DNA of 64,000 nt, taken from positions 3,410,001-3,474,000 of the forward strand of contig OZ024763.1 of NCBI GenBank assembly GCA_964016885.1. The letters run 5' to 3'. A program made the position numbers and the translations under genes. The stretch is from Eledone cirrhosa. Lineage: Eukaryota. Position 1 is the first letter of the stretch; each line of letters opens with the position of its first letter. Shown here piece after piece: positions 4,611 through 54,361 of the stretch. The notes beneath the pieces are model-generated. The model saw nothing but the letters and a program-made list of their open reading frames with translations. It did no database searches and was not told where the DNA came from.

Positions 4611-5369
4611 ATATGATGATGATGATGATGATGGGGATTGAACCCACCACATGAAGAAGAAGAAGAAGAAGAAGAAGAAGAAGAAGAAGAAGAAGAAGAA
4701 GAAGAAGAAGAAGAAGAAGAAGACGGCTAATAAATGGCGTAGTTGATAATTTTTGACTTTTGTGGGAAATAACTCTATACATAAAAGTTATTTCCCTTTG
4801 AATAACATTTCACCATGTTTTACCCCCCCCCCACATGAGTGCTGTCGGTGGGAAAGTGTTAGTTAAAATACATACACACATACACATATATACACACATA
4901 TACATATATACACACATATAGATACATACACACATTCAGATGTTATACACACATATACATACACACACATATCTACATATATACACACACATATATATAT
5001 ATATATACACACATATACATATACACACACATATACATATACATATACATATATATATACACACACATATACATATACCTATATATATACACACGCACAC
5101 ACACACACACACATATACATATATATATATTTGTATATATATATATATATATGATGAGCTTTTGATTCAAGAGTCTGGCCCGATCGATAGAGATCGAACG
5201 TTGAACTGATCAATCGCGATACGCGCGTCACACTTGAATAAACGTGATGAAAAAAAAAATGAAAAAATATATATATATATACATACACATATATGTACAT
5301 ACATACATAGATACATGTATACATACATGCTTACATACATTGATACCTATATATATATATATATATATA

Positions 5370-7319: not shown

Positions 7320-7980
7320 CAAATAACGAAACCAAATTAAATTTCGTTTCGTTTGTAACTCACTTTTGTATGACTGACGCTTAAACAATTAAGTTAAAAA
7401 TGTACATCCACATATGTATACTGAAATACTAGTATGCATATGAATACACACACGTGTACATATGTAGATGTACCGAGTTTTCACTGGTCACTTTACTGTG
7501 AGTGTCCAGCTATTCTGTATGTAAACACACAGACAAACCGGTTTTTAGAGTCATACTGGTTTTTGAGGAAACACCTTTCCTCTATTCTCCAGAAAGCCAG
7601 ACAAGGAATATTGGACTAGTTTCGATGTTGTTACATCTCATCAGCAATATTTACCTATCTTCCGGCCTCTCTAGAGAATCGTGAAAGCACATATCGCTAT
7701 ATGCTTTTTCCATGAAAATTAGTAGTGGGCAGACCAATTTGCATAGAGCGTGAGTACGTACCGGTTCAACGGAGACGATAAAAACAAATAACGAAACGAA
7801 ATTAAATTTCGTTTCGTTTGTAACTCACTTTTGTATGACTGACGCTTAAACAATTAAGTTAAAAATGTACATCCACATATGTATACTGAAATACTAGTAT
7901 GCATATGAATACACACACGTGTACATATGTAGATGTACCGAGTTTTCACTGGTCACTTTACTGTGAGTGTCCAGCTATTC
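7313..7980 (-). mobile_element. Retrozyme-like partial tandem (465-bp unit, ~1.4 copies)
   Basis: Direct repeats 7313-7515 and 7778-7980 (one mismatch seen), offset 465, with an HHR between them and (TA)n on both sides. Terminal stub at 14432-14555. Confidence 0.85.
7607..7651 (-). ncRNA. Intact minimal type I hammerhead ribozyme motif
   Basis: Minus strand AATATTG-CTGATGA-GATGT(AACA)ACATC-GAAAC-TA-GTC-CAATATT: perfect 7-bp stem I, 5-bp stem II, full core, GUC triplet. Confidence 0.92.
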
Positions 7981-8383: not shown

Positions 8384-9394
8384 TATGGCAAACGACTTGG
8401 AGTGGTTGATCAGTTTGTCTACCTGGGAAGCACTGTCAATCGATACGGCAACCTTGACAGTGAAATCTCACTTAGGATTAGGAAAGCAAGTGATGCTTTC
8501 GGAAAGCTAGAAAGGCGACTCTGGGGTCGGCGAGACATATGCAGGAGGACAAAGGTAAGGGTGTACAGGGCATGTGTACTCTCTTGTCTTCTTTATGCCT
8601 GCGAGACCTGGGTCACATATCGACGCCACCTTAGGCAATTGGAGCGTTTCCATCAGATGTGTCTCAGACGGATACATGGCGTTCGCTGGAGGGACCACAT
8701 CAGTGATGTCGAGATTTTGGAAAGCTCTATGTGTGACAGTATAGAAGCTCTTGTGCTTAAGCAGCGACTCCGTTGGAGTGGTCACCTTGCCAGGATGAAG
8801 GATTCTAGAATACCAAAACAACTCTTCTATGGAGAGTTGGTTAAAGGAAAACGACCGCCACATAAACCAAAAAAGAGGTATAAGGATTCCTTGAAGGCCT
8901 CTCTGAAAGACGCTAACATCTCTGCTGATACATGGGAAAATATTGCTGCTGATCGTAATAAATGGAGAAAGACTGTATATGAGGGAAAAGTTGCCTTTGA
9001 GGCATCTCGAATCGCACACGAGAAAGTAAAGCGGGACGTGAGGAAGGGTATTGCTGTTGCACTTCCAGACGGCGAGGGTCCTCCTATGTTTCTGACATGC
9101 AGCGTCTGTGCGAGACTCTGCCTAAGCAAAGCTGGACTCGAAAGTCATCTTCGCAGTCATAAAGTAAGACCAGTGGTTGACTACCAGGCTGCTGTTGGAG
9201 ATGCTACTCATCATGCTTGCCAAACATGTGGTAGAGAATGTAAATCAGCAGGAGGACTCAAGCGACATGCAAAAGTACACGAACTCCAACCACAGCCGAC
9301 TATTCCCAGTAAATGTTTTGGTTGCCGACTCTGTGCAAGACATTTTAGATCATTGGCTGGGCTAAAAAGCCACATTCGATCGCAGCACTGTTAG
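8384..9394 (+). mobile_element. 5'-truncated RTE-clade LINE ORF (RT C-terminus/thumb plus three C2H2 zinc fingers)
   Basis: [25 protein letters not shown] and [11 protein letters not shown] motifs; three CxxC-x12-HxxxH/HxxxxH fingers; no internal stop. Probable 3' terminus at ~9821-9862 (GGCCATACTCGATAACGAG..GCAGCCATCAT). Confidence 0.93.
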
Positions 9395-18006: not shown

Positions 18007-18010
<4 letters not shown>

Positions 18011-18823
18011 ATCGCTGAACATTAATATCGGTAAGTTTTTTTATATCGATATTTGTTGGGCATCCACTGATGATTTATAAGTGCCCACCTACATATATTC
18101 CTACGGACTATGTGTAGGCTTCTACATAACCTGGACATTATTTTCCAAATTTGTAGAAAACTTATAAAGAAACGATCGTTTGGAAAGAGAGATGTATTTT
18201 AATTATGTCTCATATAAAATAATACAACTGGCTATCCGCAAAATACATATAGTTAGCACCCCAAACGTATAATTGGGATTATACTAAGGTATATCCTAAT
18301 GTTTGTTGAGTGAGACGGAAGCCGGTCGGAGTATTGCTTAAAACTTTCTCTGTTAATGTATTAAATATTATACTCTTGATTTGGCCAGGGATGAATATTT
18401 CCAGATACTTTTTAGGTATGACTTTCCGTATTTATTCTTTGTATGAAATATTGATTGTTCTTCTGGTATCTTATCTCTGTTTTTAGCCTAAGAAAATACC
18501 TATATGCGTGTATAAATAATACATGCATATATTTATTTTTTTTATATCCAATTGAGTTCTTCACGCATGGTTAAAATTATTGAAAGAATTAATTGACCCG
18601 CATGCATATTATTTTATTCTTTTATGTTTTGCGATGACCTCCCCTTTCCGCTTGATGGCAGTGTGAGATTTCTCATTGTGAGACTGCTGGAATTTCAAAT
18701 TTGGCGGTCATTCTAGCACGGAGGGGTACCATCGCTGAACATTAATATCGGTAAGGTTTTATTTATATCGATATTTGTCGGGCATCCACTGATGATTTAT
18801 AAGTGCCCACCTACATATATTCC
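18007..18823. mobile_element. Non-coding partial tandem element (720-bp unit)
   Basis: Direct repeats 18007-18101 and 18727-18823; left end in (TA)n. Internal 18205-18362 has a diverged relative at 1030-1192. Confidence 0.75.
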
Positions 18824-18869
18824 AATGTGGTTCAATGGCAGGTTAATAAATTAACGAGCCAGAACATAT

Positions 18870-22926: not shown

Positions 22927-22968
22927 TGTAAGTCAACAGGTTAAAATTAACTTCGTTTATTCATATTC

Positions 22969-23027
22969 GCTGTAATATATATTTCGGTGATAACCAATAT
23001 TCAACAGTTATGACCTCATCAGGCAGC
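22969..23027 (-). ncRNA. HHR motif
   Basis: Minus strand GCTGC-CTGATGA-GGTCATAAC..GTTATCACC-GAAAT-ATAT-ATT-ACAGC; one mismatch at the base of stem I. Confidence 0.65.
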
Positions 23028-23261
23028 TAGAACTTGAACAGAAAAAACAGGAAATCATAATGGTGGAGTAAAGTTTACCTTGTTAATTCGTTGATATGCC
23101 AAGATCCGAAATGTGGTGTTGTTAATTCCAAGAACTGGTGGCATATGAAATAAAAGAAAGGGTGCAATTGGATTGCGTTCACAGGCTATTAGAGAGAAGA
23201 GTATCAATAATAATAATATATAACAAAGAATCTGTGTTGCATCTTATACATATTTAATCAA

Positions 23262-23348
23262 ATATTACATATGTTTCACTGCCGATCAGCTCGAGGAACG
23301 ATCGATTATGTTCATTCCCGTCTCTGGAATCGAAAGCTCCTCAGATAT
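23262..23348 (-). ncRNA. HHR motif with conserved loop II insert
   Basis: Minus strand ATAT-CTGAGGA-GCTTTCGATTCCAGAGAC...CCTCGAGCTGATCGGCAGT-GAAAC-ATAT-GTA-ATAT. Confidence 0.65.
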
Positions 23349-23682
23349 GTGTCCTCACATGTAGACTCACTAATTCTGATGATTTAGTGTTAAAGAATTA
23401 AAACTAATGATAAAATAAATTTATATTTTACAAAATGAGGCCCTCGAGGGTGGGTGAGCCTAAGCTATAGCTTATTGCTTATTTAGCTTAATATATAAGT
23501 CCAGCACTGTCTCCCTGAGATGTGTGCTTGAGGGTGGAGGCTGTGGGTGGGGGCTGAGCTAGTGGCCTTCATGGAAGGCTTGCCTTGTACAACAGATTGC
23601 TAGTAGGTACTTCTGAACTGAGAAACGGCTGTGGAAACACAACAGACTAAGAGTGTGTAAATACACACACACACACACGCAC

Positions 23683-30026: not shown

Positions 30027-30873
<847 letters not shown>

Positions 30874-30892
30874 TGTGTATATATATATATAT

Positions 30893-31276
30893 CCAGGGAG
30901 TGTAACTTGGAGTTACTGTAGGTTCACCCGGGTGAGCACTTGATGTTTAGGTTCACTTCAGTGTCGAGGTGTAGAGCTATACAGAGTGTATTATAGTTAA
31001 ATAAGATAACAAGGACGATTGGTTACTCCTTCATTACGTTGGTGACGCGCGATTCGCCACTGACCTGCTCAAGGTTCAATCTGTATCGATCTGACCTGAC
31101 TCTGTAATCCGTGGTTCATCAGACCCCTTGTAATGTTAAGGGGTCTGACGAGTCACGGATTACAGAGTCAGGTCAGATCGATACAGATCGAACCTTGAGC
31201 AGGCCAGTGGCGAATCGCGCGTCACCAACGTAATGAAGGAGTAACCAATCGTCCTTGTTATCTTATTTAACTATAT
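30893..31276. mobile_element. Foldback with HHR (31142-31226 +) and left-side tail
   Basis: Arms ~30992-31129 and 31138-31275. GGT-CTGACGA-GTCAC...GTGGC-GAATC-GCGC-GTC-ACC; GAAT replaces GAAA in both arms. Confidence 0.8.
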
Positions 31277-33913: not shown

Positions 33914-34169
33914 ATACTTTGGGAGGGTCATGTTGCCAATAAGAAACACACGCACCAGTTGCTTTCACTTCAATTTATTATATATTTATAAATTTATAAA
34001 TTTACAAACTTATATTTATAAATATTTATATTTATAAATATATAATAAATTGAAGTGAAAGCAACTGGTGCGTGTGTTTCTTATTGGCAACATGACCCTC
34101 CCAAAGTATAACAATATCGGTTTCAACACACGATTTCAGATAAAGAATCTTGCTAAACAAATTCAGAAA

Positions 34170-43952: not shown

Positions 43953-44066
43953 TTATAAATAAATCTATTTCAAATAACAACAACAGTATAGAAATTTAAA
44001 AATTGGAAATGAAGGGAAGAGCAACAAGGACTCTGGGGTCCATGCATCTCATTTTTCTGAATGTTT

Positions 44067-44992
44067 TAGTAGGTGTATTGCCAATTGCTAGTAGGTGTAT
44101 TGCCAATTGCTAGTAGGTGTATTGCCAATTGCTAGTAGGTGTATTGCCAATTGCTAGTAGGTGTATTGCCAATTGCTAATAGGTGTATTGCCAATTGCTA
44201 GTAGGTGTATTGCCAATTGCTAATAGGTGTATTGCCAATTGCTAGTAGGTATATTACCAATTGCTAGCACATGTATTGCAATTGCTAGTAGGTGTATTGA
44301 CAATTGCTAGTAGATGTATTGCCAATTACTAGTAGGTGTATTGCCAATTGCTAGTAGGTGTATTGCCAATTGCTAGTAGGTTTATTGCCAATTGCTAGTA
44401 GGTGTATTGCCAATTGGTAGTAGGTGTATTGCCAATTGCTAGTAGGTGTATTGCCAATTGCTAGTAGGTGTATTGCCAATTGCTAGTAGGTGTATTGCCA
44501 ATTGCTAGTAGGTGTATTGCCAATTGCTAGTAGGTGTATTGCCAATTGCTAGTAGGTGTATTGCCAATTGCTAATAGGTGTATTGCCAATTGCTAGTAGG
44601 TATATTACCAATTGCTAGCACATGTATTGCCAATTACTAGTAGGTGTATTGCCAATTGCTAGTAGGTGTATTGCCAATTGCTAATAGGTGTATTGCCAAT
44701 TGCTAGTAGGTATATTACCAATTGCTAGCACATGTATTGCAATTGCTAGTAGGTGTATTGACAATTGCTAGTAGGTGTATTGACAATTGCTAGTAGGTGT
44801 ATTGCCAATTGCTAGTAGGTTTATTGCCAATTGCTAGTAGGTGTATTGCCAATTGCTAGTAGGTGTATTGTCAATTGCTAGTAGGTGTATTGCCAATTGC
44901 TAGTACACGTATTGCCAATTGCTAGTAGGTGTATTGCTAATTACTAGTAGGTGTATTGCCAATTGCTAGTACATGTATTGCCAATTGCTAGT
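44067..44992. repeat. 22-bp minisatellite TAGTAGGTGTATTGCCAATTGC
   Basis: About 42 units; a reverse-complement array of about 6 units lies at 46900-47032. Confidence 0.95.
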
Positions 44993-45129
44993 GGTGGTTT
45001 TTTTTTTATCAAATGCTTCTTTACCTTATTTAGCAATCTTGGTCTCTGTGTTTTCTGGGACTCTGAATTTTTCTCAAATATTCCTTCTCTGACAACCTCC
45101 AGTCCATTTTATTCCTTTCTCCTTTATTC

Positions 45130-45304
45130 CTATCACTTCTCCAGGCCAACACTCTCCTAGCCGCTGATTTCTATCTTTTCTCCAGGCCAACACTCTCCTA
45201 GCCGCTGATTTCTATCACTTCTCCAGGCCAACACTCTCCTAGTCGCTGATTTCTATCACTTCTCCAGGCCAACACTCTCCTAGTCGCTGATTTCTATCAC
45301 TTCT
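45130..45304. repeat. 41-bp tandem repeat
   Basis: CTATCACTTCTCCAGGCCAACACTCTCCTAGCCGCTGATTT, about 4 units. Confidence 0.9.
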
Positions 45305-48394: not shown

Positions 48395-48659
48395 GAGTTG
48401 CGACCAATAGATAGTATTAGTAATTGGAAAGACGAATGGATTGGAAACATTGTTTCCTCGGTCCGATTTAACGAAAGTCGATCGACTGTCGATATGTATA
48501 TATACTGTATATGTATATATATATATACATACATATATATATATACATATACAGTATATATACATATCGACAGTCGATCGACTTTCGTCAAATCGGACCG
48601 AGGAAACAATTTTTCCATTCGTCTTTCCAATTGCGAATACTATCTATCGGTCGCAACTC
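48395..48659. mobile_element. MITE-like palindrome
   Basis: Inverted arms GAGTTGCGACC...GTCGATCGACTGTCG and complement around a TA-rich centre. Confidence 0.7.
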
Positions 48660-54103: not shown

Positions 54104-54147
<44 letters not shown>

Positions 54148-54264: not shown

Positions 54265-54361
54265 AGACATATTACAATCGTTTCTCTGGCGACCAGCTCG
54301 AGGCACGATAGATGCAATGATCAAACCTGACTCTGAAATCGCAAGATCCTCGGATATGTCT
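54265..54361 (-). ncRNA. HHR motif (C at core position 4) with conserved loop II insert
   Basis: Minus strand AGACATAT-CCGAGGA-TCTTGCGA...TCGCCAGA-GAAAC-GATT-GTA-ATATGTCT: 8-bp stem I. Adjacent hairpin at 54354-54423. Confidence 0.75.

Follow-up and report, generated by a model that had tools for sequence, protein, structure and literature searches.

A conserved predicted hairpin at the end of hammerhead stem II in the 3' ends of a likely Penelope-like retroelement clan

Introduction

Why do hammerhead ribozymes that have otherwise diverged share a structured segment at the far end of stem II? The question is raised by a motif in a 64,000-nt stretch of A+T-rich, animal-type DNA (the window), about 41% of which is masked as low-complexity. 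An earlier note on this DNA had placed four such motifs, at 5151-5233 (plus), 23262-23348 (minus), 31142-31226 (plus) and 54265-54361 (minus), and these places and strands are confirmed. The four loci of the window carry a type I hammerhead with a palindromic stem III, and they hold five copies (A, B, B2, C and D) since the 31142 locus is a fold-back pair, with arms of 136 bp and its centre at about 31128-31139 (Table 1). A covariance model built from the five copies found no sixth in the window, the next match scoring 11.6 bits.

Table 1. Positions of the hammerhead copies, their stem II extensions and their surroundings in the window
Feature	Position	Strand	Description
Copy A, decayed hammerhead	5151..5245	+	Cut off by (TA)n inside core; extension 5164-5211
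Copy A, rest	within 5151..5245	+	GATA replaces GAAA; stem III as in B; AATAAA past stem I
Copy C hammerhead	23259..23351	-	Stem I 7 nt; CTGAGGA; stem II 23337-32/23283-78; extension 23331-23284
Copy C, rest	within 23259..23351	-	GAAA; stem III CATATG; GUA site; element end ~23222-23370
Copy B2, inverted fold-back arm	30992..31127	-	131/136 identical to 31140-31275; motif 31056-31115; extension 31062-31109
Copy B element end	31140..31272	+	Stem I truncated; core CTGACGA 31145-31151; stem II 31152-57/31206-11
Copy B extension	31158..31205	+	48 nt; GAU helix, 2-nt bulge, CAG helix, 4x4 loop AGUC/UGAG
Copy B extension, distal part	within 31158..31205	+	AGG helix, 2x2 loop, GAUC apical stem, 6-nt loop
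Copy B 3' half	within 31140..31272	+	GAAT 31212-15 (U at 15.1); palindromic stem III 31216-21; GUC site to 31223
Copy B tail	3' part of 31140..31272	+	~50 nt, stops at (TA)n
Copy D hammerhead	54265..54361	-	8-bp stem I; core CCGAGGA (U4C); GUA site
Copy D extension	54340-54291	-	50 nt; apical loop 8 nt
Copy D surroundings	~54424-54354; tail to near 54143	-	Short fold-back upstream; tail ends at (TA)n

Ribozyme core and stems

The type I hammerhead core (CUGANGA ... GAAA ... UH) is recognizable throughout, being fully canonical only in copy C, changed by U4C in copy D, where the stem III palindrome is also imperfect, and damaged in A, B and B2. Copy A has two core changes and lacks the 5' strand of stem I, while in B and B2 position 15.1 is a U and stem I is truncated. 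Both fold-back arms carry this U (31212-31215 and its left-arm counterpart), so that the change is older than the fold-back. Stem III is palindromic in A, B, B2 and C. Stem I forms 8 bp in D and 6 of 7 in C, rising to 7 of 7 with the family-majority letter at 23261, and stem II is exactly six positions long in all five copies. The ribozymes of the family are predicted to be dimer-type type I hammerheads in which all three stems are kept.

Architecture of the extension

In all five copies stem II is followed by a predicted hairpin of 48-50 nt. The hairpins are colinear and align without gaps except in the apical loop, which has 6 nt, or 8 nt in D. From the core outward and back, the layout is core, 6 nt, GATT-N-CAG-AG-WC-DGG-NN-5 nt, loop, 5 nt-NN-CST-YG-AR-CWG-RYC, 6 nt, GA(A/T). 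Beyond the six positions of stem II come a GAU helix of 3 bp, a bulge of 2 nt and a CAG helix of 3 bp; a 4x4 internal loop separates these from an AGG helix of 3 bp, a 2x2 position that varies, a GAUC stem of 5 bp and the apical loop. In the internal loop AGTC (AGAC in copy C) stands opposite TGAA, CGAG or TGAG in all five copies, and helix II with its loop spans 60-62 nt. The earlier description of a hairpin with purine-rich internal loops agrees with this predicted fold and its AGUC/YGAR loop, the model pairs having a mean probability of 0.72-0.90 when the 60-62-nt segment is folded in isolation.

Is the hairpin an insert in loop II, as had been proposed? A conserved hairpin does sit on stem II, but the better description is a terminal extension to a stem II that is long in any case, not an insert of foreign origin, because stem II of other hammerhead families in the window begins in the same way: it spans 14-95 nt in those families, several of which have an identical base of 3 bp and a 1x1 mismatch.

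A relaxed hammerhead census of the window returned 21 rows, among them at least 11 motifs besides the five copies, with core halves 14-95 nt apart. Further hammerheads, several of them inverted pairs and with stem II spans of 14-36 nt, lie at 2481/2599, 7644, 23022, 29911, 34510, 35414, 35652, 40115, 50933/51047 and 62681; five or six of them have the 3-bp and 1x1-mismatch base in common. Among the Rfam matches listed, the sole further hammerhead is 7591-7662 (HH9, 38.9 bits, below 52). The fold-back at 30130-30700 carries another family (copies at 30373, minus, and 30482, plus) with a 94-nt stem II span, a U4C core, a CAATTG stem III and a sequence unrelated to the extension described here. 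At 18009-18830 (plus) lies a partial tandem unit of about 720 bp, the first ~95 nt of which recur at 18729. Its hammerhead at 18067 has an intact core, a 95-nt stem II folding as two hairpins (-29.8 kcal/mol) and a splice-donor-like GGTAAG word upstream; the whole looks like a non-autonomous Penelope-like element (PLE) or retrozyme unit.

Conservation between loci

Among copies A, B, C and D, mean pairwise identity is 0.82 in the 5' arm of the extension, 0.74 in its 3' arm and 0.73/0.90 in the two strands of the apical stem. The catalytic core reaches 0.74/0.75, stem III 0.53, stem I 0.52/0.45 and stem II 0.39/0.36. Between any two loci the arms are 71-86% identical and stem II 8-67% (1-8 of 12 bases). 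The sharpest case is B against D, where 24 of 28 arm bases are identical and a single one of 12 in stem II (Fisher p 6e-6); the same comparison gives 0.005 for B-C and 0.017 for A-D, and is not significant for A-B (0.078), A-C (0.078) and C-D (0.17). The claim that the segment is better conserved between loci than the stems is supported, with the sharpest contrast between the lineages.

Chance likeness was gauged by taking the 28 arm bases of a single copy as the query and comparing 20 shuffled windows per query. The other loci matched at 20-25 of the 28 bases, the best unrelated site at 18-19, and the shuffle maxima were 17-21. B-D (24), C-D (24) and A-C (22) lie above all of the shuffle maxima; A-B (20) and A-D (21) fail to top the maxima obtained with query A.

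It had also been claimed that stems I and II differ completely between the motifs, and this is incorrect. Copies C and D share six of seven bases in the 5' strand of stem I and eight of 12 in stem II, and their 3' tails can be aligned (p<0.001); A and B match in stem III and over most of their apical hairpins, and A and C share five of six bases in the 5' strand of stem II. The tails of B-C and B-D align weakly (p 0.08 and 0.06). Judged by their sequences, the four motifs are kin, representing about two lineages of one clan and not four independent cases.

Evidence for pairing at the RNA level

Is the segment read as RNA or as DNA? In the five-row alignment 80% of 110 cells are paired. Two-sided changes occur at five pairs: four of the six in stem II and one at the variable NN position. 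Apart from this NN pair, the helices of the motif itself show none. The covariation score of 0.282 lies above 499 of 500 shuffles (0.158), in a test that related rows inflate, and above all six slid controls (0.05-0.12); the structure was itself derived from the same five rows. On the ribozyme strand G-U exceeds A-C by 10:2 (8:1 without B2; p ~0.02). Since the motif's helices lack two-sided change, their pairing rests on folding and on this G-U bias. The folding energies of the four extensions are not unusual (z -2.4 to -0.1, mostly inside the shuffle range), and minimum-energy folds of the whole ribozymes mostly miss the hammerhead fold (z -1.1 to 0.0). By the two-sided changes in stem II and the G-U bias, the pairing looks to be at the RNA level.

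The family of copy C in public contigs

Five sequencing runs from two organisms and two studies, none of them recorded as RNA, overlap 22940-23680. Four of them were mapped to copy C at 80% likeness, a filter that favours matches, and placed 1857, 1824 and 1812 contigs (one sample) and 1398 (the second organism) on it. The family is very abundant and is present in two organisms. Its majority letters at 23321 and 23319 (81-95%, summed depth) turn changes private to C back into AGUC-AGG, as in B and D, and the one at 23261 (95-98%) restores stem I. Variation is located in stem II, the apical part and CpG sites: among the 40 variant rows listed none falls in 23330-23322, 23298-23285 or the core, and a further 41 rows appear to lie below ~10%. 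Among the same listed variants, the tail of the C family has four rows in 37 nt and is about as invariant as the extension. The contigs therefore show abundance and an intact family ribozyme, not excess conservation. The earlier note had made its case depend on the segment being better conserved than the element around it; it does surpass the stems between lineages, but not the tail within this family.

A class of 23 loose-end contigs retains CAGAG together with the GAUC stem but differs at three other arm positions, and its sequence points to a further subfamily. Opposite-strand joints in the contigs cluster around the ribozyme. A depth peak over the 3' arm was left unused because contig depth is not copy number and because C departs from its family in the 5' arm. 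Immediately upstream of copy C, 23377-23476 is the end of a separate high-copy repeat, at the tail of which copy C appears to be inserted; in other copies of that repeat (TA)n follows.

The carrier element

What carries these ribozymes? By analogy with known elements, the carrier is likely to be the truncated 3' ends of a Penelope-like retroelement clan. No reading frame is attached, and the identity is drawn from the hammerhead type, an AATAAA-like signal past the cut site and the pattern of truncation and inversion. The copies are dispersed, high-copy, 5'-truncated ends at four loci in 64 kb, with fold-backs at B and D and (TA)n flanks at the element ends. Among 137 frames of at least 50 aa in the window, the longest non-repetitive of the 206 listed, none matched a reverse transcriptase (RT) or GIY-YIG domain, and the copies end no more than ~70 nt upstream of the core.

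Other identities were rejected. A non-LTR retrozyme would have tandem hammerhead units, and all four loci are single or inverted. A coding extension is contradicted by the core TGA in the sole plausible frame, by the lack of an ATG at stem II and by the two extra nucleotides in the loop of D. For a tRNA-derived or Pol III-driven SINE, there is no A box in the five copies, the B-box-like words are inconsistent and ARAGORN reports 0 genes.

Elsewhere in the window, 8390-9391 (plus) encodes the C-terminal part of a LINE-like frame that contains several C2H2 zinc fingers and is cut short by a microsatellite. Long near-perfect palindromes with sub-threshold miRNA models, together with a 22-bp minisatellite, occupy 2502-2578, 33920-34104, 48469-48590 and 44001-45250.

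Possible functions of the extension

What might the extension be for? The answer that we favour, tentatively and as something just short of probable, is that the element's own RT-endonuclease uses it as a sequence-specific handle, the hairpin being a recognition module that selection maintains at the RNA level. The enzyme would read the 2-nt bulge and the 4x4 loop, which could explain why paired bases are kept in sequence instead of covarying. Its binding would chaperone the ribozyme, and on the bound RNA reverse transcription would start a few dozen bases downstream. The genomic copies extend 45-130 nt beyond the cut site, so that their templates were uncleaved or re-joined. A freely covarying stem of fixed length, joined to invariant helices, bulge and loop, would be the usual pattern of an RNA surface that is read by a partner. 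Against the analogy with a protein-bound template, the shortest active template of the anole PLE starts at +20, and most of stem II is therefore dispensable there (PMC11167929). The other hammerheads of the window, at least 11, lack the module.

Alternatively, the extension may be a folding aid of the ribozyme itself, docking stem I or a stem III dimer partner and replacing the contact between loop II and stem I, which we regard as unlikely though worth serious attention. The exact six-position spacing from the core in all five copies suggests helical phasing, and the apical stem is made of self-complementary GAUC. In addition, palindromic stem III implies dimers (PMC4209133), and changes of stem length that shift tertiary contacts lower activity in other hammerheads (PMC3088659). 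However, stem I offers no conserved partner (identity 0.45-0.52), the loop lies 12 pairs from the core and thus farther out than a 7-8-bp stem I, and the B arms keep the extension despite a damaged core, although these are dead copies.

Could the extension simply be the least changed part of related elements, kept by ancestry or moved between them by template switching, with no special function? This is rather less likely again. It would suit the kinship of C and D (tail, stem I and eight of the 12 bases of stem II) and of A and B (stem III), the mosaic look of copy A, the C-family tail that is conserved as well as the extension, the three nonsignificant pairwise tests and the frequency of long stems II in the window. 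What it accommodates poorly is the B-D pair, in which stem II has turned over (1 of 12) while the arms keep 24 of 28 bases, unpaired loop bases included: module swapping would need two exact crossovers here, and the tails of B-C and B-D align weakly. If the conservation were ancestry alone, this would be one more ordinary PLE hammerhead family.

It is improbable that the conserved bases act as DNA, in the form of an imperfect palindrome that serves a pseudo-LTR internal promoter or as an endonuclease site. Such a role would fit motif helices that are conserved in sequence without covariation, and PLE promoters do lie in the pseudo-LTR (PMC6765202). The excess of G-U over A-C on one strand and the continuity with a covarying stem II argue against it. 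So does a comparison with consensus motifs: none of the five copies contains a Pol III A box or an exact DRE, and B-box-like 9-mers occur in only three of the five, on differing strands.

The last reading concerns the 4x4 loop. Loop A of the hairpin ribozyme has a 4x4 layout with U+2 and C+3. That the loop is such a loop A, a second cleavage site docking on the GAAAC of the hammerhead core, is very improbable, even though AGUC/YGAG supplies G+1, G8, A9 and a purine at position 10 in the same register in all five copies, including the A10G tolerated in natural hairpins (PMC8216279), GAAAC is common to both folds in an engineered bifunctional RNA (PMC8370743) and GAAAC begins 12 nt past position 11 in C and D: the -2:11 pair is inverted (G-C, not C-G, in five of five copies), the loop B strand A38-N-A-U-U42-A (ANATTA) is nowhere usably placed in the five copies, helices 2 and 3 would measure 3 and 9 bp where the hairpin ribozyme has ~4 and 5, and Rfam gives no hairpin match. 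A natural hammerhead-hairpin chimera, with AGUC/YGAG engaging the core GAAAC in cis or across the dimer, has accordingly a very slender chance; were it real, the clan would possess a two-site ribozyme or a switchable one, and such ribozymes have so far only been engineered.

Comparison with known systems

Does the extension belong to an RNA family already described? In Rfam, copies B, C and D give only chance matches at E up to 10, in keeping with the earlier note, which did not recognise the segment; copy A was covered by the whole-window scan, in 150 of its 523 rows, and miRNA models match the B fold-back below their gathering scores. Three likenesses, considered as leads, were discarded, and none has an Rfam match: SRP helix 8 fits the B arms alone, the second was the 7SK GAUC repeat, and for a SECIS or K-turn the order of the A-G tandem is wrong. 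The arm pattern occurs at two viral and 81 metagenome loci, with both hammerhead core halves in none of the 82 examined, and the core plus arm pattern at three viral and 24 prokaryote loci, none of the 27 having GAA where it should lie; these collections hold little animal DNA, and the matches are treated as chance. In the parts available of bioRxiv 10.64898/2026.07.22.740005, PMC3088659 and PMC7229834 no such module is mentioned. No description turned up in the literature searched, where the papers listed for the motif's words are all unrelated, though a prior one may exist, for instance in the consensus libraries of Repbase and Dfam. What we describe is a conserved and apparently undescribed extension; the ribozyme that bears it and the element around that ribozyme are both of kinds already known.

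Among invertebrate PLEs, Naiad elements (Craig et al., 2021, PMC8557442) are likewise associated with (TA)n. The core halves are far apart in both: in Naiad, with its "HHR_half_core", they are separated by 35-50 nt in eight families. The ribozymes here differ in keeping all three stems. The available portion of its supplement has no motif words in a hammerhead context (nine of ten CAGAGTC matches), and the module is not evident by eye in the cephalopod Naiad 3' ends given there.

With the Anolis Poseidon PLE (PAc; PMC11167929) the copies share a hammerhead near the 3' end and A+T-rich insertion sites. In that system, which lends support to the handle reading, the hammerhead cleaved only with protein present, and uncleaved RNA is the main template; the copies here likewise reach past the cut site. 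The protein-binding region of the anole RNA was placed within +20 to +172 of its reading frame, at the hammerhead and directly past it. The anole frame begins at stem II and the ribozyme has a short loop II, unlike the extension here, which no reading frame crosses.

The closest relatives in design are the hammerheads that sit in the pseudo-LTRs of metazoan PLEs (Cervera and De la Pena, 2014; PMC4209133). These are type I ribozymes with a CUGANGA and GAAA core and a larger than usual helix II, the palindromic stem III is found in its mosquito, shrimp and acorn-worm examples, and the elements are mostly single truncated copies or nearby opposite-strand pairs, all of which applies here as well. 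The role of the PLE hammerhead and the RNA feature recognized by the RT-endonuclease are open questions (PMC4209133, PMC11167929), and a module whose geometry is fixed, which diverged subfamilies have kept and two organisms share, would be a concrete candidate for that feature. Descriptors that limit loop II to short lengths, and the Rfam hammerhead models, overlook this abundant variant: helix II plus loop has ~11-23 nt and a free loop in the metazoan examples of PMC4209133, but 60-62 nt and a conserved module of fixed geometry in the family described here.
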